DNA from: Bacteroidota bacterium
GTDB lineage: Bacteria; Bacteroidota; Ignavibacteria; Ignavibacteriales; Ignavibacteriaceae
Length of the DNA: 40,000 nt
Reading direction: 5' to 3'
Assembly: GCA_021824145.1 (NCBI GenBank)
Contig: JAKALM010000010.1
Coordinates: forward strand, 104,013 to 144,012
Under the pieces are notes generated by a model. The model saw only the letters and a program-made list of their open reading frames with translations. It was not told the DNA's origin and ran no database searches. How positions within the stretch are numbered: position 1 is the stretch's first letter; each line of letters begins with the position of its first letter. This document shows, one piece after another, positions 9,360 to 33,793 of the stretch. Both the position numbers and the translations under genes were made by a program.

Positions 9360-9372
9360 TTATTAATAGAAT

Positions 9373-14024: not shown

Positions 14025-14253
14025 TATTATATAATATAAATATATATAAATATCTAAAAATTTAAGCTATATGTATTTTACGGATTCCATTTGAGAAACA
14101 GTTCTTGATTATTATGGATATGATAAACAAGCTAAAAACCTATTTTGTAGAAACTCTAATTATTATTTATTCTTGTAATTGTTCTTCAAAAATTGTTTGT
14201 ATAATACAAAGTGACAGAAGCAAAATCATATTCAAATTTGCGAAAGTGTGTTA

Positions 14254-18770: not shown

Positions 18771-19202
18771 AATATATTATTCTTTTATTTCAATTATCAT
18801 TATTTAATGGTTCAATATTAATTATTCAACAGTTTATTACTTCATGCGTGTAATATGCAAAACTTTATGCATATTTCTGGTACGAATAATTTTCCTTTAA
18901 TACTTTTATTATTTTGAAAGTTTCTCTTCGATTGTTTTTTTGAATTTGCTGTTTCATTTTTTCATTGCAATCTTTACAAGATTTAATTGAATCGATGAAA
19001 AATATGATACAATTGCTTTCAACGTAGTTTAGGGACATACCAATTTTCTATTTTTATCTAAATGTCTCAATATTTTATTCCTTAACCTTAACTTTGAAAG
19101 TGTCTCATAATTTGGATACGCAGTATAGAAAATAATATAAAGGCATCAACACATTTTCTTATTCTGTAGGATCTCTATAAAAAGATCTAATTTAATTAAT
19201 GA

Positions 19203-20126
19203 CTATTCCTCAATTCCAAGTCTATCAAGCATACTTTTATAAGCAAAATGATATTGCTCTACTTCTGGTTCTTTAGAATTAACTTCACGATAAAGCTTTA
19301 AAGCTTTATCATAGATTTTATGCTGTTCATAAAAATTAGCTAAAATAAATTTACAGGCAATCGTTTCTTCAAAATTATTTTCGGCTAGAATCTGTTGGAC
19401 AGAATCTTTTATCATTTTAGAATTTTCTTTTTGTTCAATATAGAACCAATATTCCCTTGAAATTGTATTCTTCTCTTTATTTAAGGCAACACTCCAATAA
19501 TAATGATTATCTTCTAATAAATTTAAATTAATTACATTTAATTTTATTAATGTATCACTAGTTTCAGTCTCATAAATTAAACGATCGAATTTATCTAATA
19601 AGCTAAAATAATACATTGCATTCTCGCCGTACTTGTACCAGGAAAAAATAATTGTTGTGTCTATAATATTTGAGTTTCTCGGCATATATAATTTTATTTT
19701 ATCTTTTTCAATTCTTTCGCGCATTACTGCACCCTTTTCATCCATTACTTTACCTTCTGAATCTTTTTGACTTACCTCATTAAAAATGAAGTCCGCAAAT
19801 TTATATGTCATTGATGTTGAATTAGGCTGTTTTAAATTATTTGTTAAATCTTTTACTTTATAAATACCTATATTTTTTAGTTCAATTGTTTTACCTGATT
19901 TATATACAAGACCTAAATAAACATTTTTACCCAGTTTAATTATATCATAAGAATTCAATTTTTTTCCAAAGGAAAGTTTATTCCATTCATTTGATTTTAA
20001 ATCTTTCACAAATGCTTCTCCATAAACAGCAATTACCCTAAATAATTCTGATTGTGCAAACCCTTGAGTAATTGAAATCATAAAAAAAATAATAAAAAAT
20101 ATAATTTTAAATTTTCTATTTGTCAT
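19203..20126 (-). CDS. Exported FecR-like beta-sandwich protein with C-terminal TPR-like helices (operon gene 11)
   Basis: Signal peptide (FFIIFFMISITQGFA-QS). FRVIAVYGEAFVKDLKSNEWNKLSFGKKLNSYDIIKLGKNVYLGLVYKSGKTIELKN fits the FecR-domain pattern. C-terminal ILANFYEQHKIYDKALKLYREV is TPR-like. The ATG overlaps the CHASE2 stop as ATGA (20123-20126). SD gggagg lies 8 nt upstream. Confidence 0.55.
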   Translation of the reverse strand: MTNRKFKIIFFIIFFMISITQGFAQSELFRVIAVYGEAFVKDLKSNEWNKLSFGKKLNSYDIIKLGKNVYLGLVYKSGKTIELKNIGIYKVKDLTNNLKQPNSTSMTYKFADFIFNEVSQKDSEGKVMDEKGAVMRERIEKDKIKLYMPRNSNIIDTTIIFSWYKYGENAMYYFSLLDKFDRLIYETETSDTLIKLNVINLNLLEDNHYYWSVALNKEKNTISREYWFYIEQKENSKMIKDSVQQILAENNFEETIACKFILANFYEQHKIYDKALKLYREVNSKEPEVEQYHFAYKSMLDRLGIEE

Positions 20127-21331
20127 AACAAAACCTCCCTTTTTTGGGGTTTTAATTTTTTTATTAATTCATTATATGTATTAATTGAATTAGGGACTAA
20201 AATTAGTGAAAGTATTATTATTGTCGTATCGAATTGATAATTAAATACATTAAAGATGAAGATAGATAGATATAATATAAACAAAATTTCAATTATCGTT
20301 ATTATTGAAGCAATCTCATCGTACCAATTACTACTTATTTTAGATACCCAAGAAAGAAATAAAATGTTCAATAGACATATTGTCATTGAAAGAATGATAT
20401 TTGTTATATAAGGCATTGAATTAATAAAATTACTACTTAATATCATCGAAATGATATTGGCGTGAATAATGACACCATACATGTCGGGAAAAGTTTTGCC
20501 GGCATATCTTTGATTCATTGGAGTAAAAAATTTATCATTAATAAATAAAGAGTCATTAAAATTAATCCCTAAAAATCCTACTAAAACAATTTTATTTTCG
20601 ATCATACTTTTATCAATTGAAGAATCCAACTGATCAATATCGATTCTCATATAATTATTATAGTAAACATTCCTTTCATAATTTATTCTTTCCTCAGTAT
20701 TATTACGTTTTAAAAAATCATTATATTTACCAACATCAAAAAGCTTTATACATTGAACAGCAAAAGCATTTATAGTATCACTCATAATAACATATCTAGG
20801 CATAAAGCTTCTGACGGTCATAAATCCTTTGCTTTCATCTGTTATCAAATTAGCATAACCTTGAGTTGCATTTCTTAAAAAGACTTTATTTGAAGTTTTA
20901 ATAGAATCATACATATCTGATGTATTGTTTTTTTTTATTAGTGCATTTGCCAAAACAATATTTTTCCCATTATTTAAACTCTTAACTAAATAATTATCGT
21001 TCTTAGATCCATCAAAATTTTCAAAAAAAATATCAATCCCAATAACTTTTGGATTAAATTTTTCCAAAATATTTAATCTTTTTGAAATTTCATTTCTCGA
21101 TAAAAATCCGATATTAACAATTACGATATTTGTATCCAATGGAATATCATCATGATTACGAAGTTTAGAAAAAACTATGTCACTGAATTCAAAATCACTA
21201 AATGCTTTTGATAATGGATTAAGGAAATCAAAATCTATTGGAATGATTGACATTCCAAATATGAATAAAAAAATGGATATTGTAATTATTAGTTTATGAA
21301 TAAAACTCATTAACTTAAAGTTAAATTCCAA
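20123..21331 (-). CDS. Stand-alone CHASE2 domain membrane protein, no output domain (operon gene 10)
   Basis: N-terminal TM, then CHASE2 landmarks: IVIVNIGFLSRNEI...PKVIGIDIFFE; GYANLITDESKGFMTVRSF; NKIVLVGFLG...FFTP...MYGVIIHANIISMIL. Three C-terminal TM helices and a stop ~15 aa later. Start is TTG 21331 (11-nt overlap with CHAT) or ATG 21310 (10-nt spacer). Confidence 0.78.
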   Translation of the reverse strand: MEFNFKLMSFIHKLIITISIFLFIFGMSIIPIDFDFLNPLSKAFSDFEFSDIVFSKLRNHDDIPLDTNIVIVNIGFLSRNEISKRLNILEKFNPKVIGIDIFFENFDGSKNDNYLVKSLNNGKNIVLANALIKKNNTSDMYDSIKTSNKVFLRNATQGYANLITDESKGFMTVRSFMPRYVIMSDTINAFAVQCIKLFDVGKYNDFLKRNNTEERINYERNVYYNNYMRIDIDQLDSSIDKSMIENKIVLVGFLGINFNDSLFINDKFFTPMNQRYAGKTFPDMYGVIIHANIISMILSSNFINSMPYITNIILSMTICLLNILFLSWVSKISSNWYDEIASIITIIEILFILYLSIFIFNVFNYQFDTTIIILSLILVPNSINTYNELIKKLKPQKREVLL

Positions 21332-23861
21332 CTATAATAAAACTACCCCAATCATATGGATTTGGGAACTTGGATTTAATTTCTAATTGAGCACTTTTAA
21401 ATGCTTCAAATTTATCATTGTTTACTATCCAATTTTTATAAAATTGAACCATAAGTTTTTGTGTTATTTTATCATCAACTTTCCAAAGACTCATTATAAT
21501 TGTTTTAGCACCAGCAATTTGAAATGCTCTCTGTAATCCGTACACACCTTCTCCATTGACAATTTTGCCTTTTGCGGTTTCACACGCTGATAGTACAACT
21601 ATTTCTGTACTATCTAAACAAAGATTAGTTGCTTCTAAAGCAGTTAATATGCCGTCATCAATATCAAGATTATTTTTACTAAAAAGATTTCTATTTGCTC
21701 CTGCAAAATAAAGTACTGAATTCAGTAATGGGTAATTCTCTCTATAAAATTCATTATTAAGGTTTTCTTTTATATTAGAAAAGCCACCATGAGTTGCAAT
21801 GTGTAAAATGAAAGGATTTTTAATTGATTTTAAAGCTTCTTCTATCGCATTTTCTTTAATAAATTTATCAACTTGCCAATTATTATCTTTTAATATTTTT
21901 TCAATTTCAGTAATCTCAATTTCACTTCCTTTTAATTCTTTTAATCCATTATTATTACTAAATATTTGATTTGAATCTTTATTATCTAACTGTCTCATAT
22001 AGTATTTATTTGCCAGTTCAATATTTTTAGCTTTAGATAAATTATAGTTTGGATTTCCGAATAAACAAGCATATTTTGTTTTATGGTTCTTAACTTCATT
22101 TCTATTTATGATTTCATTTGTATTGGATACAAGTATAATATTATACTTATCAATTAGAAATCTGTTTTCATTATCTCTTAATGTGTTCAAATTTATTTTA
22201 TTATAGACTCCGTCTAATGATAAGTAAATTTTTTTCATGCCTATCAAATTTTCGTCAATTTTCTCCCAAAATTGATCGTATGATAATTGATCATCAAATG
22301 AATCTGTAATTGATTTTATATAATTAGAGTATATAACATTCTCTAGAGAATATCCATTTTTATTTATTACAATCTTTGGATATTCTTTAGTATCCTTATT
22401 TACAATTAGTGCAGCATAAAAAATAGTATCGGTATTCAAATATTGGATACGAATTATTTCTATAGCTGCTTCAGATGGTTTTAATTTAAGTTGAATATCT
22501 TTCCAATTAGTTTTTGGATTTCTCAATTCATAATAAGATTTGCCAGCTTGGGCACTAAGCTTATGTTCCATTGTACCAATTAAAGCGTCTAATGAATCCA
22601 GTTGATTTAGATATTCAATATTTATGTATTCGGAACTAATTGAGATATTAGAATATTCTTGCTTAAGTTTCTGGATTTTAGCATATAAATTAATTAGAGA
22701 GGAATCATTTGTACCTCTAATTCTATTCTTTTCTTTTTGAATTGAGTTCAATAATAATCCTTTAGTAGCAATTTGCTCATCATACATTTCACATAAGATC
22801 TTTGGGTTTGAATAATGTCTTGATATTGCAAAAAAATCAAATTCATTTAAATACTTTTTTAACATCGTCCAAAATTTTTCTCTTTCGTATTCATTTAAAA
22901 CTGGGAAATTTCTATCAATTTGAAAAGACAGACTTTTACAAAGTTCAATGAAATATTTTTCTGCTTTATCCATATTTCCAATTTCGAAATAAAACAAACT
23001 TAAGTTATTGAGCATTTGAATATATTTAGGATGCTTCGTCCCAAAAATCTTTGATGTAAAATTTAGAGTCTCGACATAAAGTGATTCAGCTTTAATATAG
23101 TTATGCTCTTTCTTATATATATAACCTAGATTATTTATAATGTCCAGGAAATAATTCGGGTATTGATTTATGGAAGATATTAATTCAAGAGCTTTATTAT
23201 AGTTATCAATTGCTCTATCAAATTGATCAATCTTCAAACACTCCATAGCATTATTACAAAAATAATTTATTCTATTTCGAGTATCAGAGTGTTGATCCAA
23301 TTCAACCATTTGCAGTAGTGAATCAGCTTTTGAAATTTTGCCGATCGTTCGATATATAAGCGAAAGAATATTGATAGATTTAATATAATCTGAACTTTTT
23401 ATATCCTCATTTTTTTGGTGTAGATTAATTGCATTTATACTAAAATTTTCTGCTTTCTCATATTGTCCTAATTTTAAATATAAGCTAGCTAAATTTTCAC
23501 ATGAAGTAGCTAAATATTCCCAATAGTTTGGATATTTTTCTTTTCTGATCGAATACGCTTGTAATAAAAATTTCTCAGCTTCATCATATTTCCCAAGTTC
23601 TAGATTAAATTGACCAATATAGCTAAGAATTATAGTATAATTTATTCCTTGATCATCTTTTAAGTCCTCTACTAATATTTTAGCTTGCTCCATCGAAAGT
23701 ATTGCTTGATTTAAATTGCCTTTGCTATGTTCTTCAATAGAATTTAAGTATAAATCTTTCCAATTCTGTGCAAAAAGATTATTGGTAAGGAATGCAAAAA
23801 TTATAAATAAGTGAATAATAATTACTTTTATACTTCTATACTTAGTAATATATCTTGACAA
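21321..23861 (-). CDS. Exported TPR-CHAT caspase-like protease (operon gene 9)
   Basis: N-terminal basic + hydrophobic segment (KYRSIKVIIIHLFIIFAFLTNNLFA-QN). About 270 aa of TPR repeats (e.g. GKYDEAEKFLLQAYSI, GQYEKAENFSINAINL, HNYIKAESLYVETLNF, GNMDKAEKYFIEL). C-terminal CHAT: LHIATHGG (His691, nt 21789-21791), VVLSACETAKG (Cys760, nt 21582-21584), terminal YDWGSFIIVG. TTG start. Confidence 0.85.
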   Translation of the reverse strand: MSRYITKYRSIKVIIIHLFIIFAFLTNNLFAQNWKDLYLNSIEEHSKGNLNQAILSMEQAKILVEDLKDDQGINYTIILSYIGQFNLELGKYDEAEKFLLQAYSIRKEKYPNYWEYLATSCENLASLYLKLGQYEKAENFSINAINLHQKNEDIKSSDYIKSINILSLIYRTIGKISKADSLLQMVELDQHSDTRNRINYFCNNAMECLKIDQFDRAIDNYNKALELISSINQYPNYFLDIINNLGYIYKKEHNYIKAESLYVETLNFTSKIFGTKHPKYIQMLNNLSLFYFEIGNMDKAEKYFIELCKSLSFQIDRNFPVLNEYEREKFWTMLKKYLNEFDFFAISRHYSNPKILCEMYDEQIATKGLLLNSIQKEKNRIRGTNDSSLINLYAKIQKLKQEYSNISISSEYINIEYLNQLDSLDALIGTMEHKLSAQAGKSYYELRNPKTNWKDIQLKLKPSEAAIEIIRIQYLNTDTIFYAALIVNKDTKEYPKIVINKNGYSLENVIYSNYIKSITDSFDDQLSYDQFWEKIDENLIGMKKIYLSLDGVYNKINLNTLRDNENRFLIDKYNIILVSNTNEIINRNEVKNHKTKYACLFGNPNYNLSKAKNIELANKYYMRQLDNKDSNQIFSNNNGLKELKGSEIEITEIEKILKDNNWQVDKFIKENAIEEALKSIKNPFILHIATHGGFSNIKENLNNEFYRENYPLLNSVLYFAGANRNLFSKNNLDIDDGILTALEATNLCLDSTEIVVLSACETAKGKIVNGEGVYGLQRAFQIAGAKTIIMSLWKVDDKITQKLMVQFYKNWIVNNDKFEAFKSAQLEIKSKFPNPYDWGSFIIVGI

Positions 23862-23904
23862 AATATTTATTTTTGAATTATTAAAATTTTATAGTTTAAT
23901 TTTG

Positions 23905-25248
23905 TTAAAAGAAAAATGAAATTCCGGCACCAACTGAAAATCCAGTAGTTTTTAAATCAATATTATCATCATTTTTTAGCAGTGGAACAAAATGGTATCC
24001 CCCCTCTCCATATATTCCAAAGCTTCCTAATTTGAAGGTTAAGGATCCAAGAAAATCAACATCTATACCACGGTATGCTTGATTAACAATATTATTTAAA
24101 TTATTATCTTGAAATTCAATGGATGTATACATATAATTAATTCCAAAGATTATTCCTGGATACATAAAATTAAGTATAGAAAATTTCTGTTGTATTCCAC
24201 ACCCTAATTGAAAGAAAAATAATTTACTATGTATTGTTTGATTTGAAGTTAAATATATATTCTCATTAACTTCACTCGTTAATGATAGTCTTCCATTTAT
24301 AAAAAACCGTGTATTAGCTTTAGCAAAATTGATTTGTAAACCAAACACTAAAGGAGTTAATGTGCGTGTGTTAAAAAATTTTTTTAGTGTATCTGAATTA
24401 AATGTAAAATTCTGGACTGTAAAGATTAACCAGTCATTAGATCTATATTTATCAGTTTCGTTTTCAAGTTCAAGTTCTTCTTTATCCCTGATAACTTTCT
24501 CGGCTCTTTCACTTCTTAATTCAGCTAATTTAATCCTAAATTTTTCAGCTTTATCATTATTTCTTTTAGTTCTTAAATAGTAATTACGATATGTCATTTC
24601 ATTAAAGTCAACTTGATCATTTACCAGTTTAAATTCACAATTAGATGAAGTTGAAAATACTTTATTAACTGTTACTTCACCAAGAACTTCATCTTTGACA
24701 GTAGAAATCAACTCTAATACATCGTTTTTAATTGCAGAACGATCTGCACCATAATTGATTGAAATTGTTTCTTTATCAATAAAAGAATTTATTTTATAAA
24801 TTGTGGGTACAATATTCTTTATATATTGGGCAATATATTCAGAAATCAGCTCATTATTCGACTCTGAAAGGTAATTTTGTGTAAGTGTAGAAACATCATT
24901 TGTTTGTAAATTTATAATATCAATCCTTATATCAAACAAAGTAGTAAAATTTTTTGATTGACTTATGTAACCTTTAATTGCATAACTAGCCGGAGTAAAA
25001 TTTACTTCTATAGTTTTTTTAAAATAATTCCTTATATCCTGAACCTTTAATTCATCTTGTGCAATTGAAAAATCTCTAGAAGGGAGAGAGAACGATTTGC
25101 TAAGATCTTCTTTTAGTTGAGATTCTATTTTTTTTGCTATTTGTTTTGTTCCATTTCCCTCTTCTGAATTAAAGGGATATACCACAATTTGTCCAAATAA
25201 AGTTGAACTAAATAACAATAATAAAATGGATAGAAATATTTTTTTCAT
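23905..25248 (-). CDS. Exported protein: TolB-N/FlgO/CsgG-like N-domain + C-terminal small beta-barrel (operon gene 8)
   Basis: I prefer ATG 25248 (MKKIFLSILLLLFSSTLFG-Q, SD aaggaaa upstream) over the track start 25272. N-domain IVVYPFNSEEGNG..IAKKIESQLKEDLSKSF..SRDFSIAQDELKVQ fits the periplasmic scaffold fold seen in LpoB/CsgG/FlgO. A charged coiled coil follows. The last ~170 aa alternate hydrophobic/polar residues and end in GAGISFFF, an OMP-type terminal Phe. Confidence 0.55.
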   Translation of the reverse strand: MKKIFLSILLLLFSSTLFGQIVVYPFNSEEGNGTKQIAKKIESQLKEDLSKSFSLPSRDFSIAQDELKVQDIRNYFKKTIEVNFTPASYAIKGYISQSKNFTTLFDIRIDIINLQTNDVSTLTQNYLSESNNELISEYIAQYIKNIVPTIYKINSFIDKETISINYGADRSAIKNDVLELISTVKDEVLGEVTVNKVFSTSSNCEFKLVNDQVDFNEMTYRNYYLRTKRNNDKAEKFRIKLAELRSERAEKVIRDKEELELENETDKYRSNDWLIFTVQNFTFNSDTLKKFFNTRTLTPLVFGLQINFAKANTRFFINGRLSLTSEVNENIYLTSNQTIHSKLFFFQLGCGIQQKFSILNFMYPGIIFGINYMYTSIEFQDNNLNNIVNQAYRGIDVDFLGSLTFKLGSFGIYGEGGYHFVPLLKNDDNIDLKTTGFSVGAGISFFF

Positions 25249-25258
25249 AAAAATTTCC

Positions 25259-26371
25259 TTAATTAATCTCAAAATTGATTAGTTTGCCTGAAGTGCTTTT
25301 AAGGTTCAATCTTCTAAAATTTGTTTTCCCGCTTAAAGCATCGAATATAGCATCTACAACCTCATCAGGTCGGGGACTTTTATAAGTAATTTCAAACCTA
25401 TAGAAATCTTCCTGTTTACTCATTCTAATATCTCCGGTAAATCCTTCATGTGAGGTTAAAGCATTTTTAAATTCTCTGGCTATTAAGTAGTCCGTTATTC
25501 CAAAGATTCTAATTTCGTAACTTGATCCTCTTGCAGCCATTCTATTAAAGTTTAACAGAATTTGTTCCACTATTTTTTCTGCTGACTTAATTGATGCTTC
25601 TTTTATAGCAGTAATATTAGCTTCGTCTTGATTTGTAATATTACCAACTAAACCGCTTGATTCATTTGCTGTACCTATTCCAGTAGCATTTTCTGTATCA
25701 AATGCTTCAAGATTAATATTTGCAGAAGAATAATAGGCTCCCGTATTTAAATTTTTACCCTTCATATCCAAAGTTATATTTACTGTTATATAATAAGGGG
25801 CATCTGCTTTAATTGCTATATCTCTCATATCTTGACTTCCAGATAATGATGACATCTCTTGCATTATATTACTTACGGCATCCTGAGAAATATATGTAAA
25901 TCCCAGCCTGCCTAAATATTCATTGATTACATTCACTGATAAATCTGTTAGCTTTTTATTAGAATTTTCATTTGAGTAGTATGAAGAAATTACCAAAATT
26001 TTAGGCCTATTAACTCTATCTAACAAATTATCAATTGCACTAATATCTTTTTCTAAATCACTTCGAGATATGTCAGCTTTAATAGTCACTTCCCATTTTT
26101 TTGTATCATCATCAAATTCCTTATTTGTAACAATTTCATTTTTTAAATATGCATCTGGTTTATTAGTTACTTTCCCTTTAATTACCTCCATTTGTTGGGG
26201 TCTTTCTGTGAATAAATCCTCAACTCCCTGTATAACAGCTTTTCTTCTAGCATCTTCCAGAGCATCTCTTTCTGTTTTTCCATATCCAGTAGATTTTTCT
26301 TTTACTGATGTTTGAGAATAGACTATAGAAGGAATAATTATAAAAAACAAAATAAAAATTACTTTATTCAT
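25259..26371 (-). CDS. Exported three-domain protein, LPP20/FlgT-like (operon gene 7)
   Basis: Signal peptide (IIIPSIVYS-QT). N-domain STGYGKTERDALEDARRKAVIQGVEDLF is LPP20/FlgT-N-like. The middle RPKILVISSYYSN...LTDLSVNVINEYLGRLGFTYISQDAVSNIMQE is TolB-N-like. The C-terminus has a small alpha/beta domain. Size (370 aa) and three-part layout resemble Vibrio FlgT. This is inference only. Confidence 0.45.
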   Translation of the reverse strand: MNKVIFILFFIIIPSIVYSQTSVKEKSTGYGKTERDALEDARRKAVIQGVEDLFTERPQQMEVIKGKVTNKPDAYLKNEIVTNKEFDDDTKKWEVTIKADISRSDLEKDISAIDNLLDRVNRPKILVISSYYSNENSNKKLTDLSVNVINEYLGRLGFTYISQDAVSNIMQEMSSLSGSQDMRDIAIKADAPYYITVNITLDMKGKNLNTGAYYSSANINLEAFDTENATGIGTANESSGLVGNITNQDEANITAIKEASIKSAEKIVEQILLNFNRMAARGSSYEIRIFGITDYLIAREFKNALTSHEGFTGDIRMSKQEDFYRFEITYKSPRPDEVVDAIFDALSGKTNFRRLNLKSTSGKLINFEIN

Positions 26372-26403
26372 TTGTTCCTCTTTGAATTAATTTTATCAAT
26401 ATT

Positions 26404-27441
26404 TTATTTACTTCTAATCAAATTTTTCACAGATGCACCTAAAATTTTTTTTGAATCCTTTGAAAAATAATCATTGACATAAACGCCACTACCAAAAGTA
26501 CCTATATATAACTTCCCATTAGGAGAGAGAAACAAAGAGTATATCATTCGACCAAATTCATCACCGCCAATTTTAACCCAATTCCTTCCATTATCTTTAG
26601 AATAATAAACTCCAAATTGATAAGTGCTTGCAAAAAGATTTCCATCATTATCACATACTAAACCGCTAATATATGGATTAGGAATTCCAAATCTTTTGTT
26701 ATTGCTAATGTTAGTCCACTTATTTTTAGTTGAATCAAATAAATATACTCCACCTCCATGCGTAGCCGCATATAACAAACCTTTTTCACTTTTCGTAATT
26801 ATCCTAATATTCCCATTTTGTAATCCATTACTAATTTCTTCCCAATTTTTGCCAGAATCTGTAGATCGAAAGATTCCCGATACAGTACCTGCATAGAAAG
26901 TATTATATTTATCTATATATAAATAATTAATGCAAATATTTTTAAGACCATTATTAATTGTTGATATTGAATCATTATGATTAAGTTCATAAATACCATC
27001 ATTAGTACCAAAAACAACGTTATTATCTTTTGTAAAATCAATCGAATAAATCATCTTATCTTTTGGTTTTTCAGTTAATACTTCCCATTTTTTTTTATCA
27101 TTAGGCTTTGATGGTGTTACAGTTGAATCATTGCCATATCCAGATTTAAGAAATAATTTATAAACATTACCAGCACATCCAGCATAAAGATTATTAGCGC
27201 TATCTATTTTTAAACTATATACATCATTAATAATTTTATTATCATCAATTCTATGCCATGTTGAGTCACCTTCTGAGAAACACCAGATTCCGGAATCAGA
27301 AGTTCCAATAAATAAAGTATCTGATACTTCTGCTAATGAATATATACTTCCTCCAAATGGCCTGACTAATTGCTTCCAAATACTTTGGGCAAAAGTTAAA
27401 CTAGTACAAAAAAATAATATGGATAAGAAACGAAATTTCAT
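26404..27441 (-). CDS. Exported BNR/Asp-box beta-propeller protein (operon gene 6)
   Basis: Signal peptide (LFFCTSLTFA-QS). Asp-box motifs STDSGKNWEEI and SKDNGRNWVKI plus degenerate SEGDSTWHRI and DSTKNKWTNI. Recurrent blade strands (LYAGCAGNVYKL, FYAGTVSGIFRS, LLYAATHGGGVYLF, LYIGTFGSGVYV). Confidence 0.7.
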   Translation of the reverse strand: MKFRFLSILFFCTSLTFAQSIWKQLVRPFGGSIYSLAEVSDTLFIGTSDSGIWCFSEGDSTWHRIDDNKIINDVYSLKIDSANNLYAGCAGNVYKLFLKSGYGNDSTVTPSKPNDKKKWEVLTEKPKDKMIYSIDFTKDNNVVFGTNDGIYELNHNDSISTINNGLKNICINYLYIDKYNTFYAGTVSGIFRSTDSGKNWEEISNGLQNGNIRIITKSEKGLLYAATHGGGVYLFDSTKNKWTNISNNKRFGIPNPYISGLVCDNDGNLFASTYQFGVYYSKDNGRNWVKIGGDEFGRMIYSLFLSPNGKLYIGTFGSGVYVNDYFSKDSKKILGASVKNLIRSK

Positions 27442-27480
27442 TTTTCTCCTTTAATACATAATCTATTACTTAAATAATAA

Positions 27481-27888
27481 TTAATTGTTATTTAATGAAT
27501 TCTTCCTAAAAGAATCTTCAATAAGTTTTAATTGTCTTACCTTATTTCGTATATCGATAATTTTTTCCTTTGATATCTCGACATAAATTATAACTTCATA
27601 TTGTTTTAATATTTCATTAAAACCTTTTTTAATTGTTTTTTTTGAAACAATAAATTCGTCAGGGTCAGAACCAATTTTATTAATTAAACTATCAGGTAGT
27701 TCACCTTTTAAAATTCCATAATCCAATAATGCGTATGTTATTCCCTTTAATTTCGCTTTTTGTTTAGCTTCAAATTCAGTAATTCCAAAACTCTTAACTT
27801 CTTTATAAATATTTTGACCAAACAATTGAATATTATTACAAAGGAAGGTATAGAATAATATTAGAAAAAAAAATTTTATAAATTTCAT
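27481..27888 (-). CDS. Small exported protein, LPP20/FlgP-like helix motif (operon gene 5)
   Basis: Signal peptide. KSFGITEFEAKQKAKLKGITYALLDYG resembles the G-x-G/A...A...A...A motif of LPP20-type proteins and the N-domain of gene 7. Weak call. Confidence 0.4.
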   Translation of the reverse strand: MKFIKFFFLILFYTFLCNNIQLFGQNIYKEVKSFGITEFEAKQKAKLKGITYALLDYGILKGELPDSLINKIGSDPDEFIVSKKTIKKGFNEILKQYEVIIYVEISKEKIIDIRNKVRQLKLIEDSFRKNSLNNN

Positions 27889-27907
27889 TTTTTATTTTAT
27901 GTAACTT

Positions 27908-29143
27908 TTATATTGAAGGAGGTTCATTTAATTTTATTCGTAGATTTATAAAAGCCTTTAATAAACCAAAACCTCCAGGCAGTTTTGAAAAACTAAACGA
28001 AGGTCCAAAAGCAAAATCCTTAGCAAAACTTTCAAATAAATTTGAGAACAATAAATCACAACTTAATTGAGGCTGTCGAATATTATCCATATCTTTTATC
28101 ATATAGTCAAATCTGAAATCAAACTTTGTTTGTATTTTGTAACCCAATGACATTTCATAGAACCGCATTCCGAAATGCCATTCATGCTCGTAATCTGCTA
28201 AATATATTTTGCCAAAAGGAGACGCTAATACAGATATTGGATATCTTATTTCAAAATTTATATAGTGCCCAGTTAAAAATTTAGGTTCGAAAACTGTACC
28301 ATCAGAGCTTATAACTCTTGTTTTATTAAGTATTTCATCTTTAGCTGATTTACTAATTTCATTAATAACTTGCTGATATTGGAACCTAATTATGTCAGAA
28401 AGAGGGAAAGAATAACTAGCTTGAAAACCAAGCGTTGAATAAACATTGTTAAAATTATTTTTAGGATAGAAATCGCCAACATCCCCAAAACTATTAAATG
28501 CACCAATTGCACCACCTAAAATATGAAAATTAGCTTCATAGAAATTTGTTTCTAATGGTCCGCTATAAGGAGAACCAAACCCCAAGGAGAGTCCAATGCC
28601 TAAATTTCTATCAATTGGTAAACCAAGTCTTTCGCCACCAAAAAGTGTAAAATATTCATTGATAAAACTTCCAAATGGTTCATATTTATATTTTGGTTGG
28701 TTCCACTTTATTTTTTGATTATTGCTTAAAACAATCTTTCCTACAACAGAAGTCAATATATAATGCCAAGGTATTTCTGACATATCAATAATTTGATTAT
28801 CTCTAAGATTAATTATTTCATTCACCCAATTAGATATTGAGCTATCCTTCTTTATTTCAGCAAAACTAATACTATTACCCCAGGGTATAACAGTAATAGT
28901 AGATGCAGAATCCATTGTATTTCCTGAAGAATTTCTAACTATTTGAACAATAACATGATTTGATGATAGTGATGGAACCTGATCATATGTTACGGCTAGT
29001 TTTTTTTGAATTTGCATTGATAATGTGGGATCTATAATTTCAAATTTATCAGGTACTTGAGAGAAAGTAAAAGAGTTATAATAAATTAATATAAATACGA
29101 TTATTGCTAATATTCTGTATAATTGTTTCATTGTTCTCTCCAA
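27908..29143 (-). CDS. Exported hypothetical protein with Gly/aromatic-rich beta-barrel-like C-terminal half (operon gene 4)
   Basis: Signal peptide (ILAIIVFILIYYNSFTFS-QV), SD ggagag. The C-terminal half is rich in alternating aromatic/Gly segments (GIGLSLGFGSPYSGP, NFHILGGAIGAFNSFG, YSTLGFQASYSF, FDFRFDYMI). No family recognised. Confidence 0.45.
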   Translation of the reverse strand: MERTMKQLYRILAIIVFILIYYNSFTFSQVPDKFEIIDPTLSMQIQKKLAVTYDQVPSLSSNHVIVQIVRNSSGNTMDSASTITVIPWGNSISFAEIKKDSSISNWVNEIINLRDNQIIDMSEIPWHYILTSVVGKIVLSNNQKIKWNQPKYKYEPFGSFINEYFTLFGGERLGLPIDRNLGIGLSLGFGSPYSGPLETNFYEANFHILGGAIGAFNSFGDVGDFYPKNNFNNVYSTLGFQASYSFPLSDIIRFQYQQVINEISKSAKDEILNKTRVISSDGTVFEPKFLTGHYINFEIRYPISVLASPFGKIYLADYEHEWHFGMRFYEMSLGYKIQTKFDFRFDYMIKDMDNIRQPQLSCDLLFSNLFESFAKDFAFGPSFSFSKLPGGFGLLKAFINLRIKLNEPPSI

Positions 29144-29145
29144 TT

Positions 29146-30165
29146 TTAATTACCGTTAATGTATATGGATTTCGTAATTTCTCTAGTTTTATGAGAAATT
29201 TTATCTGTAACTTTTAATTTTATATTAATTCGATACCCGTCATTATCTTCAGATCCTTGGCTATCACAAATATCTATGAAATTTGAATATTCTTTATCAC
29301 TAACTTTATGAGTCCACTTTATTGAATAAATTTTTCCTATTTTTAATTTATTTTCTACAATATCTTCTTCTTTGTAAAAAAGCCAATTATTTTTTGCCCA
29401 TCCAGTTGGATTAACTACAAAAGCATCAAACTTAAGATCTTCTGGAAAATCATATCTAACCGCAAGAGTAAATAAATTTTGATCATTTAATTGATTAAAA
29501 CTTTTAGCTTTATTAAAATCATTGGAAAGAGAAAATTTTGGAATCTCTGGTTTTTCAAAGACCTCAATAGAATCAATTAATTTAAGTTGGTCACTGCCAG
29601 GGTCTTTGTATTTAATAAATATTTGGTGATTTTTAATGGAATGGGTCAAGTTAAGTTTTCCATCTTTTTCGTTTGCTCTTAAAGACAAAATAATTTTATC
29701 ATCTGCGATAAAAAATAAATCTTGATTGGTAGGATTTGAAACAATATTTACCGCTTGGTTATAAATTTTCTTAACAGGATTTGAAATAATCATGTTCTTA
29801 CTTAAAATCACAAAATCTTTTTTTAAAGGCACATGCGGATTATTATAAGGAATATTAACAGGAGGTTGTGCAGAATTGCTTTCTTCAGTTGAATAATTTC
29901 CAAAATTTGAACTATTCCCTTTTCTTAATTCTTCTTTAAGTTTAGCAATTTCATTTGTTAAAATTGCATTTATTTTTTTTTCATTCTCATAATTTTTTTT
30001 GTAATTATCCATAATAATTTTTGAAGCAACTTCGGGAACATTGGATTCGGCTACTTTTGAAAGAGTAAGTTCTGCACCTTTATATACCATAATAGTCAAA
30101 ATCACTATATACAATATTTGGTAAAGTACAAACTTATTGTCACTGCTAGCTGATCTAATTGACAT
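29146..30165 (-). CDS. Bitopic inner-membrane protein: TM anchor, coiled coil, Pro-rich linker, beta-rich periplasmic domain (operon gene 3)
   Basis: N-terminal FVLYQILYIVILTIMVY anchor, coiled coil (NEKKINAILTNEIAKLKEELRK), linker AQPPVNIPYNNPHVPL, then ~220 aa that are beta-rich. SD gaggt upstream. 2-nt gap to gene 4 and 9-nt gap from gene 2. Confidence 0.5.
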   Translation of the reverse strand: MSIRSASSDNKFVLYQILYIVILTIMVYKGAELTLSKVAESNVPEVASKIIMDNYKKNYENEKKINAILTNEIAKLKEELRKGNSSNFGNYSTEESNSAQPPVNIPYNNPHVPLKKDFVILSKNMIISNPVKKIYNQAVNIVSNPTNQDLFFIADDKIILSLRANEKDGKLNLTHSIKNHQIFIKYKDPGSDQLKLIDSIEVFEKPEIPKFSLSNDFNKAKSFNQLNDQNLFTLAVRYDFPEDLKFDAFVVNPTGWAKNNWLFYKEEDIVENKLKIGKIYSIKWTHKVSDKEYSNFIDICDSQGSEDNDGYRINIKLKVTDKISHKTREITKSIYINGN

Positions 30166-30174
30166 AATTTTACC

Positions 30175-31353
30175 TCAATCCTCTTGCTTAGTATCGTCAA
30201 AAACTTTAATTGGGGCTCTATTATTATTTTCTTCATTAGTATCCATATTCATTTCAGCTTGAGTTTTTTCCAAAATATTAAAAATTTGTTCCTCATTTTG
30301 ATCTAAAACTAATCCATTTTTAATTTTATTATTAATTTTTTGAATAATTCCATAAGCATTATGACATACTTCTTCTTTTTTGTCTTTTAAAACTTTATGT
30401 GCAGGTAATGGAACAATTACATTTTTATCTCTTTTAAAACGTTCGGTAATTCTGTCGACTTTTACATCTATCATTTCGAGAATTTTATTCCCGGTATGTA
30501 ATACCCTTAATCGTGTTTCTTCTTTTATTCTATGTTCATCAGCTATTAATTGATAATATTTAACTCTATATTCATCACCTAAACTGTCTATAACTAGAGA
30601 AAAGGTTTTAGATAGAATCAAAACCAAAATTGCCTTAATTTCAAATGGAATAGAAAAATTTATAAACATCATTGGTCCGACAATTACACTTAATAATAAA
30701 ATTGCCGCTCCTAATAGCGGAACACTGAACCCCATAACATCAATTATATTTAGATATGAATTTTCAACTTCTTCAAATGCATGACTATCAGGTAATTTTC
30801 CTTTTTCATAATCAGATCTCATGACATGATACCCATCGAATGCAACCAAAGTAAAAATGAAAAAGGCTACTAAAGGCATAAGGTTAAATACCCAATAATG
30901 ATGCACATTTTCTTCTCCAAATGGACGAGATTTGCTATATAATGTTTTTAATGCTTCTTTATTCTCAACACTCCAATTTTTATTAGCTTCTAGCAGAGCA
31001 ACCAATTCAGCTTTGTTTAATTTTCCTGATAACTCTAACTCAGGATAAACATTGTCATAAGGAAGTAATTTTAATTTTTCCTTTAATTCTGATATTTCTT
31101 CATTGCTTAATTCCGAAGTAGGATAAGTAAGTACATATGATTGATTTTCTGTCTGCAATGTTGAGTCTGGAGTCAAAGCAACACTTATTTTTTCTTTTGT
31201 AATTCTTTGGTTTAAATTATTGATTACATTATAACTTATTCCAAAAGAAATTAATACTAAAATAAAATTTATTAAAAGACTTTTATATGTAATTCTTAAG
31301 AAATCCTTTATATCGAATAGCAAATTTTGAAAAAAATTATTTTTATCCTTCAT
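30175..31353 (-). CDS. Polytopic (about 4 TM) inner-membrane protein with long coiled-coil cytoplasmic tail (operon gene 2)
   Basis: TM1 LLINFILVLISFGISYNVI, ~110-aa periplasmic loop, TM2 YWVFNLMPLVAFFIFTLVAF, TM3 SVPLLGAAILLLSVIVGPMMFI, TM4 PFEIKAILVLILSKTFSLVI, then a ~130-aa charged helical tail. P-L-L-G in TM3 and a Glu at the start of TM4 are faintly reminiscent of MotA/TolQ/ExbB channels. Unverified. Confidence 0.5.
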   Translation of the reverse strand: MKDKNNFFQNLLFDIKDFLRITYKSLLINFILVLISFGISYNVINNLNQRITKEKISVALTPDSTLQTENQSYVLTYPTSELSNEEISELKEKLKLLPYDNVYPELELSGKLNKAELVALLEANKNWSVENKEALKTLYSKSRPFGEENVHHYWVFNLMPLVAFFIFTLVAFDGYHVMRSDYEKGKLPDSHAFEEVENSYLNIIDVMGFSVPLLGAAILLLSVIVGPMMFINFSIPFEIKAILVLILSKTFSLVIDSLGDEYRVKYYQLIADEHRIKEETRLRVLHTGNKILEMIDVKVDRITERFKRDKNVIVPLPAHKVLKDKKEEVCHNAYGIIQKINNKIKNGLVLDQNEEQIFNILEKTQAEMNMDTNEENNNRAPIKVFDDTKQED

Positions 31354-31397
31354 ATCATCCTCATTTTAAATTTCTTTTCAACTATTTTTCCCTTTGC

Positions 31398-33494
31398 TTA
31401 TTTATTTGTTCCTTCTTTAGTGCCTATTGGTGTTTCAATAATTAGTTGGCAAGTCCTATTATAAAATCTTCCTTCAGGTGTTTCATTATCATATAAAGGG
31501 ACTGATTCACCATATCCTTCGCTTGATAGATCTTTAGTAACTGGTTTTAATAATCTGACGAATTCTTTTAATGCATTAGCTGCTCGAGATTGTGATAATT
31601 TCATATTAGAAATTTCAGTTCCAATACTATCAGTATATCCAATCATTTTTATGCTAGAATTATTAGAAATGTCATCTTTAACTTTAAATAATATATCTTG
31701 ATTCCTTTTATTTAGATAAGAACTATTAAAATCAAATAAAACTAGACTTAACTTTTCAACATATTTATCTGAAATCTTATCAAGTTTCTTTTGCTCAGAG
31801 GATAAATATTTAACTGGCATTTCAAAAAATTTTTTTTGGGTTTCGAGGCCTTTACTATCTTTTAAATGAATGACGAACTCAAATGGCGAATTGTTTACAC
31901 TTTTATTCTTAATTGATTCATTAATATTCCAAGGAATATAAGGCGGAGGATAACTTTTGCCAGCAGAACTGAACATTAACTGATTATTCTGTTTTACAAA
32001 TAATTCCCATGATGTTGGTGGAGAAGTGAATTTTAGATCTAAATGAATTTGTAAATTTCCAGGGTCAGATAATTTACTATTACTCAAAATATCTACAGAA
32101 TTGAATAAATTGGGATCATCAGAAACAATTTCTACTCTCCTGTTTTCTTCTTGCCCTTTAACATTATAAATATTTGAAGGCTTTGAAGGTAAATTTTGAG
32201 CTTTTATAGTTATTCGGTCAGGAGAAATATTCCAAACATTCACTAAATATTCTTTTATTACTTCAGCTCTATCTCTACTTAATTTTAAATTATTTTTTTC
32301 TGAACCTTCATTGTCATTGCACCCAATTAATTTGATTTTTATTCTATCATATTTTTGAAGCCTTTTTCCAATAATGTTAAGTATATTATAGTAAACACTT
32401 AATTGATTTGCATCAAGATTGTTTTCTTCAAATTTTGCAGTATTCTCTTTAGTAATAAGAGAATATTTATTAAGTATTACTGCAGAATTTTTTTCAAAAA
32501 AAACATAGTTTAGTAGCGGATAAAATTCTTTTGATTTAATTTCTTCTATCATTACATGATCAATATTTTTGTATACATTGTCTGCTAAACAAAAAATTCC
32601 AGATTCTGTAATTTCTGGAGGTAAAAATTCATTATAAGTGACTTCATATCCAGAAAAAATAATTTTATTAGCTATTCTATTAAAATAGTTAGCTAATTCT
32701 ACTGCATCTTTTGCTTTGAAATATTCACCATTAGACTTCTCAGCTAGCTCTTCTAAAATATTTCTTCTCGAAGTGATATTTTCTGATCTATTAAAATCAA
32801 CTGAATATATTTTCCCACTCTTATAGCTAGATAATACATCTTCAGTGGATGTTTCACTTGCATTATCTTCTCCATCAGAAAGTAAAATATAAAAAACATC
32901 TTTAGGGGCTAAATTTTTATCTGAATTAAATGCTACATAAATTTGATCTCTTAAATAAGTTCTATCAGTCAAATTATCATATTTATAATACTTTTTACAA
33001 AAATTAATTACTTCACTGTTATTTCCTGCAAATTTATTTAATTGGATGTTTAAAGGTTTTCCTTGGAAATAAAAATTACTTTTATCATTGTCATGACCGA
33101 AGAAAAGAACAGATATCTCTGCTGATTTTGATAAGCTACTAATTAATGTATCTAATATTTTTAATAATTCCTTACTATAATTATTCATTGAAGCAGAGTT
33201 GTCTAAGCATAATACTACTTTATATTTTGAACTTGTCTCTTCAGATAAAGGTACTACTTTAACTATTTCAGTTAAATTTGAACCAATTTTTAAATCAAAA
33301 TCATTTTTATTTAAATTTTCAATTGGCTGATTATCTTTATTTAATACTTTTATTTTAATTTTATTCGAAGAGATTGGTTCGGTTGATATTTTATAATTAT
33401 TTTTTTGATATCCCTTTAAGGAAATATTTACTTCCTGTGAGTAAGTTAAAATAGATATAAAAATAATTAAAACTAAAAAGAAAAAAACCTTCAT
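31398..33494 (-). CDS. Exported vWA domain protein with two OmpA-like peptidoglycan-binding domains (operon gene 1)
   Basis: Signal peptide (FISILTYS-QE). vWA MIDAS VVLCLDNSASM (D98/S100/S102, nt 33189-33203) and LLSDGEDN. OmpA-like 1: IKLIGCNDNEGSEKNNLKLSRDRAEVIKEYL...NRRVEIV (~nt 32124-32522). OmpA-like 2: IKMIGYTDSIGTEISNMKLSQSRAANALKEFV...GRFYNRTCQLIIE (~nt 31434-31748). Confidence 0.8.
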   Translation of the reverse strand: MKVFFFLVLIIFISILTYSQEVNISLKGYQKNNYKISTEPISSNKIKIKVLNKDNQPIENLNKNDFDLKIGSNLTEIVKVVPLSEETSSKYKVVLCLDNSASMNNYSKELLKILDTLISSLSKSAEISVLFFGHDNDKSNFYFQGKPLNIQLNKFAGNNSEVINFCKKYYKYDNLTDRTYLRDQIYVAFNSDKNLAPKDVFYILLSDGEDNASETSTEDVLSSYKSGKIYSVDFNRSENITSRRNILEELAEKSNGEYFKAKDAVELANYFNRIANKIIFSGYEVTYNEFLPPEITESGIFCLADNVYKNIDHVMIEEIKSKEFYPLLNYVFFEKNSAVILNKYSLITKENTAKFEENNLDANQLSVYYNILNIIGKRLQKYDRIKIKLIGCNDNEGSEKNNLKLSRDRAEVIKEYLVNVWNISPDRITIKAQNLPSKPSNIYNVKGQEENRRVEIVSDDPNLFNSVDILSNSKLSDPGNLQIHLDLKFTSPPTSWELFVKQNNQLMFSSAGKSYPPPYIPWNINESIKNKSVNNSPFEFVIHLKDSKGLETQKKFFEMPVKYLSSEQKKLDKISDKYVEKLSLVLFDFNSSYLNKRNQDILFKVKDDISNNSSIKMIGYTDSIGTEISNMKLSQSRAANALKEFVRLLKPVTKDLSSEGYGESVPLYDNETPEGRFYNRTCQLIIETPIGTKEGTNK

Positions 33495-33498
33495 GTGA

Positions 33499-33505
33499 CC
33501 TCCTT
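33499..33505 (-). promoter_or_regulatory. Shine-Dalgarno AAGGAGG of the first operon gene
   Basis: The plus strand reads cctcctt at 33499-33505, i.e. aaggagg on the coding strand, 4 nt before the ATG (33494-33492). Confidence 0.6.
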
Positions 33506-33560
33506 GAATTATAAATTGTTCACTATTATAAATTGGAATACTAATGAATAAAGATTGAAC

Positions 33561-33584
33561 ATATTTATAATCATATTTATAATC
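33561..33584. promoter_or_regulatory. Perfect tandem 12-mer (atatttataatc x2) in the operon leader; possible operator or -10-containing repeat
   Basis: atatttataatc at 33561-33572 and again at 33573-33584, 67-90 nt upstream of the operon start codon. Each unit contains tataat/attata. AT-rich context lowers significance. Confidence 0.25.
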
Positions 33585-33793
33585 ATTTTAATAAGATTAT
33601 TTTTAAATAATTAATTAGCAACTTCATTTTTTTCCAACCATGTTTTTAGTCTAAAAATTATAATAAACTATTTCATGGTTGAGCTATAGATTTTGTAATG
33701 TATCACTTTAGTTTTTCATCATAAATAATATTTAACTCATATTTTAGGGCAATTTAAAGAATTCTATTCTTATTAGTTTTTATTTTTATTATC

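Follow-up and report, generated by a model that had tools for sequence, protein, structure and literature searches.

What kind of system, if any single one, is encoded by eleven consecutive minus-strand open reading frames (ORFs; g1-g11, numbered in the direction of transcription) whose products all appear to be exported or membrane-bound, and one of which is a caspase-like CHAT protease? The ORFs lie at positions 19203-33494 of a 40,000-nucleotide stretch of Ignavibacteriaceae DNA, hereafter the window (Bacteroidota bacterium, GCA_021824145.1, contig JAKALM010000010.1, positions 104,013 to 144,012, forward strand). An interpretation of the letters alone (the sequence-only reading) had proposed an undescribed trans-envelope system built around the protease. 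We find that the cluster is a mosaic of three modules that also occur independently, namely the triad g2-g3-g4, the pair g7-g8 and the CHASE2 gene g10 with its neighbour g11, plus the exported CHAT protease g9. Neither the cluster, whose unity as one system is putative, nor any of these sub-modules fits a known kind of system. The reading that we favour, at a probability of roughly 0.45, is a lineage-restricted composite operon in which a periplasmic caspase-like protease would be both tethered and regulated on a scaffold that is anchored in the outer membrane and peptidoglycan and linked to the inner membrane.

An operon-like cluster of exported and membrane-bound proteins

The ORFs encode 698, 392, 339, 411, 135, 345, 370, 455, 846, 402 and 307 amino acids (aa) and are separated, from g1 to g11, by 44, 9, 2, 19, 39, 32, -14, 43, -11 and -4 nucleotides (nt). 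With the ATG starts preferred by the gene caller for g4, g8 and g10 (Table 1), both TTG-dependent overlaps turn into 10-nt gaps, and the sole overlap left is the ATGA shared by g10 and g11 (20123-20126). On the downstream side, g11 is followed by ~430 nt of non-coding DNA and then by a cation-efflux gene in convergent orientation. No terminator-like site lies between genes; those found on the minus strand within the cluster fall inside g2, g4 and g10. A sigma-70 promoter scan was uninformative (shuffled sequence scored equally well), and an Rfam scan of the window, leader included, returned no family at its gathering score. The layout had been described correctly in the sequence-only reading: the ORFs with their coordinates and lengths, the gaps of 2-44 nt or overlaps, the leader, the AAGGAGG and the downstream non-coding stretch were all recovered when the sequence was read again.

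The claim that every product bears a signal peptide or membrane anchor was likewise borne out, with a hydrophobic N-terminal segment in 11/11 products by hydropathy. Signals of the signal peptidase I type, read from the translations, are present in eight of the eleven, each ending in [S/G/A]-Q, which fits the Q-rule of Bacteroidetes (PMC5837995). Transmembrane segments number four in g2 and one in g3, whilst g10 has one at the N-terminus and two or three at the C-terminus. Pfam and NCBIfam scans revealed no ATPase, transcription factor or mobility domain in the cluster, as had been stated. Assuming that ~30% of proteins are exported, eleven exported products in a row lie far beyond chance (~0.3^11 by our own estimate). 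Judged from its sequence, the cluster is a real, operon-like and probably co-transcribed unit whose products are wholly extracytoplasmic or membrane-bound.

Table 1. The cluster genes, their leader and the gene upstream, in window coordinates.
Feature	Position	Strand	Description
leader	33495..33793	(-)	AT-rich, 299 nt, 5′ of g1; AAGGAGG 6 nt ahead of the g1 ATG (sequence read)
g1	31398..33494	(-)	698 aa; signal peptide, probable vWA, 2x OmpA-like peptidoglycan-binding domains
g2	30175..31353	(-)	392 aa; inner-membrane, 4 transmembrane segments, ~135-aa cytoplasmic coiled-coil tail; triad gene 1
g3	29146..30165	(-)	339 aa; bitopic inner-membrane; triad gene 2
g4	27908..29131 (ORF to 29143)	(-)	407 aa from ATG; exported, Gly/aromatic-rich, beta-type; triad gene 3
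g5	27481..27888	(-)	135 aa; small exported, LPP20/FlgT-N-like
g6	26404..27441	(-)	345 aa; exported beta-propeller, Reg_prop/BNR/Ycf48-like
g7	25259..26371	(-)	370 aa; exported, FlgT-like, three domains
g8	23905..25248 (ORF to 25272)	(-)	447 aa from ATG; exported, conserved g7 partner
g9	21321..23861	(-)	846 aa; signal peptide, TPR array, middle region, CHAT caspase-like protease domain
g10	20123..21310 (ORF to 21331)	(-)	395 aa from ATG; membrane, CHASE2 only
g11	19203..20126	(-)	307 aa; exported CHASE2 partner; start overlaps g10 stop (ATGA)
g12	33794..34411	(-)	205 aa, no signal peptide, coiled coil, weak fn3 match

Three modules that also occur outside the cluster

The full eleven-gene order, together with g12, is kept in one related metagenome-assembled genome (MAG) at 53-79% identity (~65% amino-acid), while the downstream flank there differs from that of the window. 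In ENA the window is part of a 55-kb metagenome contig (ERZ27237541), its nearest relatives being a MAG labelled 'Bacteroidetes bacterium' (GCA_023475265.1) and one of the Ignavibacteriaceae. Estimates of distribution depend on the collections used and on the sensitivity of pattern-based scans; with this limit, the g7 family was found in 2/185,579 species genomes, and that of g8 accounts for only 22 of 1.84 billion cluster representatives. Conserved synteny, which had been put forward as a test of the proposed system, is thus seen for the whole order in a single second genome, whilst elsewhere only the separate modules are found.

Much of this distribution weighs against the composite operon that we favour. 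The complete set was found only in this organism and the one related MAG, and with just two related genomes its conservation could reflect simple shared ancestry. A scan of metagenomes with the g2-family alignment gave 293 relatives, from which 80 loci were kept and their neighbourhoods read: g3 follows g2 in 69 of the 80 and g4 follows g3 in 56, the remainder being contig ends, and no homologue of g1, g5, g6, g7, g8, CHAT or CHASE2 is present in any of the 80. Housekeeping genes recur beside these triads, among them those for NADH dehydrogenase subunits and a divergent alpha-amylase-like gene. Unrelated partners are likewise found with the g7-g8 pair (loci L005, L006 and L013). At L005 (581-13207; GCA_041739035.1, an Ignavibacteriaceae MAG) the two proteins are 68% and 36% identical to g7 and g8, respectively; they are preceded by a 1282-aa AAA_16-Pkinase-TPR (STAND-like) protein and five Pfam-less genes, and followed by a YkuD L,D-transpeptidase and a GT2/chitin-synthase-like gene. 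Neither CHAT nor CHASE2 is present there. On another contig g7-g8 are accompanied by a PAS kinase and by an fn3/Ig protein of 1422 aa, and the companion genes of unassigned type at L005, L006 and L013 had no informative Pfam match.

A g11-family gene directly follows one or two output-less CHASE2 genes at L009:7498-10945 (in tandem), L010:1681-3923 and L014:11926-14467, which are two metagenome contigs and a Bernardetia (Cytophagales) megaplasmid, all Bacteroidota. No CHAT or other cluster gene lies nearby in these three contexts. Their gene order points to CHASE2-g11 as a periplasmic module of two components that is conserved as such. On plasmids, the nearest CHAT loci (Flammeovirga, Tolypothrix and Nostoc punctiforme) have no CHASE2 or DUF928 neighbour; a CHAT-CHASE2-DUF928 neighbourhood may exist in cyanobacteria, and the papers searched do not mention the three together. 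Finally, the idea that the triad is a motor draws on motifs, no hhalign comparison with GldL/M, TolQ/R or MotA/B having reached a probability of 1%. The triad, g7-g8 and CHASE2-g11 are thus each seen without the rest of the cluster, which is not so for g1, g5, g6 and the CHAT gene. The proposal of one system built around CHAT over-reached in this respect: three of its modules are autonomous elsewhere, and because they live independently the one-system reading is weakened.

A simpler explanation for these distributions is that three or four unrelated envelope modules stand head-to-tail in one lineage, perhaps behind one promoter, and form no single machine; these would be the triad, the pair of FlgT-like and barrel proteins, the CHASE2 pair, and a secreted CHAT protease with its vWA-OmpA anchor. 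Envelope genes commonly cluster, the modules do occur alone, and their combination is confined to two related MAGs. Set against this, an order of 11-12 genes has been held at ~65% amino-acid identity despite a different downstream flank, and the genes are very tightly spaced behind a single long leader with no terminator-like site in the gaps. The cluster triad is moreover a divergent paralogue, its g2 being 30-36% identical to canonical triads over ~1/3 of its length, a divergence that fits recruitment to a new job. We regard mere adjacency of independent modules as rather unlikely, whilst giving it substantial weight.

The g2-g3-g4 triad

The most robust by-product of the analysis is the triad itself, which is a stand-alone, widespread, Pfam-less three-gene module predicted to reach from the inner to the outer membrane. 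Homologues of g2 come from Ignavibacteria- and Kapabacteria-type MAGs, and none of 68 g2 homologue clusters carries a Pfam domain. Hydropathy places the transmembrane segments of g2 at residues 26-44, 154-172, 213-231 and 237-255, and in the family alignment P212, G215, A216, A217, P236, F237, E238 and K240 are invariant. The g3 protein comprises an N-terminal transmembrane segment (residues 12-30), a coiled coil, a Pro-rich linker and a beta-rich C-terminal domain; D9, K11, F12, Y15, Q16, L18, Y19, I20 and K29 are invariant in its family, and D9, three residues ahead of the transmembrane helix, is so across 27 sequences. No Pfam or PDB match was found for g4, a putative outer-membrane barrel that ends without a C-terminal aromatic residue. 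No significant Pfam or NCBIfam family was assigned to g2, g3, g4, g5, g7, g8 or g11, and PDB sequence and profile searches with the g2, g3, g4, g7, g8 and g11 families gave nothing meaningful.

With its invariant charged transmembrane residues, the triad is a specific candidate for a family of envelope energy transducers that would be new. Its architecture is similar to that of the 5:2 motors (MotAB, TolQR, ExbBD, GldLM/PorLM and ZorAB) in several respects: a polytopic inner-membrane protein (g2) lies beside a bitopic one (g3); an invariant acidic/basic residue sits in an analogous position, at the cytoplasmic edge of the bitopic transmembrane segment (g3 D9/K11); the last two g2 helices carry invariant P212, G215, P236 and E238; the g3 coiled coil would span the periplasm; and a third exported gene comes next, as in gldLMN. 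In contrast with these motors, g3 has no OmpA-like or TolR-like domain.

We take this likeness as architectural only. The MotA_ExbB model (PF01618) matched neither g2 nor 34 family members at E<=10, and among the Pfam, NCBIfam and PADLOC models for MotA_ExbB, GldL, GldM, GldN, ZorA, TolR and TolB none matched a cluster protein. As the gldLMN-like order and the transmembrane motifs were suggestive, annotated GldL, GldM and GldN of a P. distasonis plasmid were compared with the triad by hhalign, alongside TolQ/R and MotA/B of E. coli K-12; with these templates, which are single sequences of low power, probabilities were 0.1-0.4% for the triad against GldL, GldM and GldN, 0.5% (TolQ) and 0.2% (MotA) for the g2 family, and <1% for the g3 family against TolR and MotB. 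Homology to the Gld, Tol and Mot motors was rejected on these non-significant values, and analogy alone is kept. The Tol-Pal/Ton-style scaffold that had been suggested survives on the same terms, as an analogy with no MotA_ExbB, TolR or TolB homology; the propeller g6 has no TolB or PD40 match, and the OmpA-like domains are carried by the signal-peptide protein g1, not by g3.

The same features raise the possibility of an apparatus for secretion or surface attachment resembling the type IX secretion system (T9SS), one where CHAT would act in the manner of the sortase PorU and both trim and attach cargo. Going by the composition of T9SS, g2 and g3 would stand for the PorL/PorM transducer, g4, g7 and g5 for the PorK/PorN ring, g8 for the 8-stranded PorG, g1 and g6 together for PorE (OmpA-like plus propeller), and the clan-CD CHAT for the clan-CD sortase PorU. 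The succession of polytopic inner-membrane, bitopic inner-membrane and exported proteins mirrors gldL-gldM-gldN; the best local hhalign matches fall on transmembrane helices (the third of g2 with the first of GldL, and that of g3 with that of GldM); the host phylum group uses T9SS; and Por_Secre_tail proteins are present in related contigs. However, those hhalign matches are not significant (<1%), no GldK/L/M/N, SprA, PorV or PorU model was matched, the cluster has neither a large translocon barrel nor cargo bearing the C-terminal sorting domain, and the triad normally occurs without any protease. We consider a T9SS-like apparatus improbable.

Several further observations were made at the triad loci (L019-L098; for example L023:9752-12901 and L071:9710-14005). 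The divergent alpha-amylase-like gene usually adjoins the triad, two tandem g4 paralogues are present at L051, L071 and L087, and in 24 loci a 257-aa multi-transmembrane protein is encoded 80 nt downstream.

Scaffold-type proteins and the likeness to flagellar rings

AlphaFold2 (AF2) structure models were made for g7 and g8. By fold, g7 is a FlgT-like three-domain protein: its model (predicted local distance difference test, pLDDT, 76.7) has an LPP20-like N-domain, a middle domain of the CsgG/LptE/TolB-N type and a small alpha/beta C-domain. At full length its Foldseek matches in the PDB include FlgT (3w1e, E 1.9e-9) and the LPHT ring (8z5n chain 0, E 2.4e-9), at a sequence identity to FlgT of only ~12%; the middle domain taken by fold matches CsgG (E ~2e-5), LptE (~2e-4) and GNA1162. 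The protein has no Pfam match and no lipobox. As the model best matches FlgT, the LPP20/FlgT-like label given earlier was right. The small protein g5 is paralogous to the g7 N-domain (BLASTP of g7 against the g5 orthologue, E 1.4e-7; hhalign of g5 against the g7 family, 77%, E 2e-5).

In the g8 model (pLDDT 82) an alpha/beta N-domain is followed by a small beta domain, and a helical linker leads to a C-terminal barrel of eight strands that ends in FFF. Foldseek matched residues 280-455 to OmpA, NspA, Ail and OmpX (E 2e-6 to 1e-5; target-normalised TM-score 0.59-0.71), and OMP_b-brl gave a weak match in 5/20 family members; at the level of the model, the predicted outer-membrane barrel is confirmed and is of the OmpA/OmpX type. 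The scaffold domains that had been proposed alongside it fared unevenly: the FlgT/LPP20-like and CsgG/LptE-like folds are present in g7, whereas a TolB-N/FlgO/CsgG-like N-domain in g8 was not confirmed. The FlgO model matched none of 20 g8-family members, and hhalign of g8 against the g7 N-domain gave a probability of 45%, owed in part to the signal peptides. A match of g8 to the MS2 coat protein in the PDB search was judged spurious.

Two further proteins would complete such a scaffold. In g1, OmpA-like domains occupy residues 359-458 and 583-687 (Pfam OmpA, E 2.5e-24). The vWA matches are below curated cut-offs (VWA_3, 1.2e-4; TIGR03436, 4.5e-7; also VWA_CoxE and VWA_2), although a metal-ion-dependent adhesion site (MIDAS) motif, DNSAS, is present at residues 98-102 (nt 33189-33203), so the vWA domain that had been called outright is better described as probable. 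The beta-propeller g6 is recognised by Reg_prop (1.8e-16), PSII_BNR, BNR_6 and BNR.

By its parts, the closest analogue of the cluster is the H/T ring of the Vibrio flagellum, in which a ring of FlgT and FlgO, associated with the outer membrane, touches the T ring of the OmpA-like protein MotY (PMC6504787). The FlgT three-domain fold of g7 is shared, according to Foldseek, and g7 is paired with the outer-membrane-embedded g8 much as FlgT is with the outer-membrane-contacting FlgO (PMC6504787); g5 corresponds to FlgP and the peptidoglycan binder g1 to MotY, and the cluster includes a TPR protein. The differences are that there is no flagellar context and no FlgO, FlgP or MotX/MotY model at threshold, that g8 has its own 8-stranded barrel, and that the cluster adds vWA, propeller, CHAT and CHASE2 domains. 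The MotY model meets g1 only through the OmpA-like domain, far under its cut-off. The statement that the system is not a flagellar H/T ring holds in so far as flagellar context is absent, yet this ring is the closest fold relative of the g5/g7/g8/g1 part.

Could the cluster then serve as an H/T-ring-like accessory to the motor of an Ignavibacteria-type flagellum? The best structural matches of g7 are FlgT and the Vibrio LPHT ring, an OmpA-like domain of g1 matches MotY in the PDB at 1e-5 among many others, and LPP20-like proteins such as g5 belong to the same fold class as FlgP. No flagellar gene is present in the 40 kb of the window, however, nor was a FlgO, FlgP, MotX or MotY model matched at threshold; CHAT and CHASE2 would be left unexplained; and a component of the motor in a flagellated clade would have to be far commoner than the g7 family is. 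We give a flagellar role very little credence.

Other envelope assemblies are more distant. To the CsgG, LptE and GNA1162 scaffolds the resemblance lies in the g7 middle domain, at the level of the fold only; no csgA/B/E/F or lptD gene is present, FlgT fits g7 better and over its full length, and the window scans found neither a CsgG Pfam match nor curli genes. For the vWA-MoxR/Bat operons, no AAA or MoxR domain was found in the cluster or its flanks.

The CHAT protease, the CHASE2 protein and g11

The protease g9 has a TPR array at ~residues 40-310 (TPR_12, 1.6e-28) and a CHAT domain at residues 528-845 (PF12770, E 2.5e-53; 181.8 bits against a cut-off of 24), in which the dyad is intact (H691 in ATHG, nt 21789-21791; C760 in SACE, nt 21582-21584). 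Its signal peptide, ending ...NLFA-QN, would place the CHAT domain on the periplasmic side, as is the CHASE2 domain of g10. That domain (PF05226, E 5.7e-22) is accompanied by transmembrane segments at residues 14-32, 312-330 and 342-360 and by a further hydrophobic stretch at ~370-390; Pfam and NCBIfam revealed no output domain (cyclase, kinase or GGDEF), and the protein stops ~12 residues past the last hydrophobic stretch. Together with the two OmpA-like domains and the BNR propeller, the TPR-CHAT protein with H691/C760 and the output-less CHASE2 protein had been named in the sequence-only reading, and all are upheld here.

The exported partner g11 begins with a strongly conserved beta domain, which bears the motif HKSGKTIELK, and continues with an fn3-like module (~residues 147-218) and a TPR-like helical C-terminus. 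The description of g11 as a FecR-like protein was not supported: FecR (PF04773) did not match g11 at E<=0.1, nor g11 with four homologues at E<=10. Sub-cut-off similarities were seen to DUF928 (PF06051; 3/5 family members, E 0.036-0.33, profile positions 47-177 of 184) and, for the N-domain, to the LapA retention-module model (3/6 family members, E 0.004-0.025). Both the g11 middle domain and the g12 C-terminus also match a repeat in a 681-aa secreted protein (L052:2597-4639, also L054), which contains at least four tandem ~95-aa modules (P-x-L-x-x-P...F-W...Y-x-L...Y-Y-W-R-V), a common fn3-like module.

There is precedent for a link between the two kinds of domain, in that caspase-fold domains are fused to CHASE2 in other bacteria, including cyanobacterial metacaspases and EACC2-caspase proteins (PMC3501461, PMC8195603). 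The shared feature is a caspase-fold protease linked with a CHASE2 sensor. Whereas in those fusions a cytoplasmic protease sits on the CHASE2 polypeptide, here CHAT is a separate protein with a signal peptide, and the CHASE2 of g10 is tightly paired with g11, a pair also found without any protease.

A second comparison is with LapD, the inner-membrane receptor that controls the periplasmic cysteine protease LapG. As in LapD-LapG-LapA, an inner-membrane receptor-like protein with a periplasmic domain is found with a periplasmic cysteine protease, and the N-domain of exported g11 is weakly, and below threshold, like the LapA retention module. LapG is transglutaminase-like and LapD senses cytoplasmic cyclic di-GMP, whereas the protease here is CHAT and g10 has no cytoplasmic domain; RTX adhesin and type I secretion genes are absent.

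On the Nostoc punctiforme plasmid pNPUN01 (L099:24247-29019), a gene with a filamentous-haemagglutinin N-terminal domain stands directly upstream of a CHAT gene, and close by is a tandem array of two CHAT genes with one of the caspase family. Such an arrangement is another hint that some CHAT proteases are exported.

Flanking genes and a possible role in defence

The flanks of the cluster are of housekeeping or sensory type and encode PAS kinases, an ABC ATPase, a pirin, an MFS transporter, a DEAD-box helicase, a methyltransferase and a thioesterase. A scan of the window proteins found no flagellar, T9SS or mobile-element genes within the 40 kb. GC content is 24-30% in the cluster (window 19000-34000) and 30-35% in most of the flanking DNA, a difference that may stem from horizontal acquisition or just from the make-up of exported proteins; a further low-GC patch (24-27%) lies at window 8001-10000.

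CHAT proteases are effectors in several defence systems, and an anti-phage or abortive-infection role with CHAT as the effector, comparable to CHAT-gasdermin or Craspase, would be in keeping with the lower GC content of the cluster and with the match of g1 to ZorB models of PADLOC-DB 2.0. That match covers only the generic OmpA/MotB domain, however, and no PADLOC-DB 2.0 model matched g2-g10, the proteins scanned besides g1. An exported protease cannot reach cytoplasmic targets; the cluster has no nucleic-acid sensor, NTPase, gasdermin or Cas gene; and it stands among housekeeping genes, with no mobile elements. We consider a defence function very improbable.

The gene upstream of the leader, g12, is kept directly upstream of the cluster in the related MAG at 72% identity, and its membership in the unit is uncertain. 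Its N-terminal 50 residues reappear in a 65-aa ORF downstream of the cluster copy in L004. Elsewhere in the window, a cytoplasmic sensor kinase of 1788 aa is encoded at 2806-8172 (-); it combines a kinase core of the HisKA_2/HWE type with at least seven PAS domains. A second PAS-HisKA kinase lies at 11706-12929 (+). Four window ORFs have no Pfam family at E<=0.001: 14248-15624 (+), 458 aa; 15729-16214 (+), 161 aa; 9373-9837 (-), 154 aa; and 39260-40000 (+), at least 246 aa.

A proposed composite platform for extracytoplasmic proteolysis

Pfam, NCBIfam, PADLOC, PDB sequence, fold and hhalign searches matched the cluster to no characterised machine, in agreement with the statement that no characterised system has this composition. 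The composite operon is favoured by the tight gaps, the ATGA overlap, the one long leader and the export or membrane location of every product, and by a block order kept in the second MAG while its downstream flank differs. It is also consistent with an exported CHAT protease whose dyad is intact, the FlgT-like g7, the OmpA-like barrel of g8, the paired OmpA-like domains and MIDAS motif of g1, and the invariant transmembrane residues of g2 (E238 among them) and g3 (including D9/K11/Y15/Y19); the fusions of caspase-fold domains to CHASE2 provide precedent for a functional link (PMC3501461, PMC8195603).

We infer a possible mechanism from topology, folds, conserved residues and modularity. In this composite platform, g7, g5, g8 and g6 would form a periplasmic scaffold anchored in the outer membrane, which g1 would tie to peptidoglycan through its two OmpA-like domains, the vWA/MIDAS face serving as a protein-binding surface. 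The triad would join the scaffold to the inner membrane, with g2 supplying the only cytoplasmic domain. The residues g2 E238/K240/P212/P236 and g3 D9/K11/Y15/Y19, invariant in 27-34 diverse members, suggest a coupled and possibly ion-driven transducer, such invariance being expected of a coupled, possibly ion-conducting, helix bundle. The TPR-CHAT protein may dock on the scaffold by its TPR array and cut periplasmic or outer-membrane targets, whilst its gating, on a periplasmic ligand or on the state of the envelope, would fall to the output-less CHASE2 protein with g11, akin to the control of LapG by LapD. Overall, such a platform would serve to remodel the envelope or the surface by regulated proteolysis outside the cytoplasm.

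A more far-reaching version concerns the triad. Triads might be a family of unrecognised periplasm-spanning transducers, maybe ion-driven, that are widespread in Ignavibacteria-type bacteria and functionally like TolQRA, ExbBD-TonB and GldLMN whilst unrelated to them in sequence; the divergent copy in this cluster would power or gate a CHASE2-controlled exported protease on a non-flagellar FlgT/LPP20/OmpA scaffold of H/T-ring-like type. We hold this extension to be unlikely.

Overall, the observation from which this work started is essentially correct. The interpretation placed on it is partly supported; it over-reached in assuming one protease-centred machine and was wrong on FecR.

Implications

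If the genes of the composite operon act together, g9 would be the first example of a caspase-fold (CHAT) protease that acts periplasmically, on an envelope scaffold of its own and controlled by a CHASE2-type sensor, and regulated proteolysis by caspase relatives would extend to the extracytoplasmic space. FlgT/LPP20-type ring proteins, hitherto known from high-torque flagellar motors, would in that case be used outside flagella, which would bear on the origin of the flagellar accessory rings. Were the triad also to act as a transducer, the cluster would represent a new kind of energised, sensor-coupled extracytoplasmic proteolysis machine.

Two points hold whatever the unity of the cluster. 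CHASE2-only proteins with a fixed exported partner, g11, suggest a route by which CHASE2 may signal without a cytoplasmic output domain, and the Pfam-less g2-g3-g4 triad, with its 293 metagenome relatives, stands as a finding of its own.

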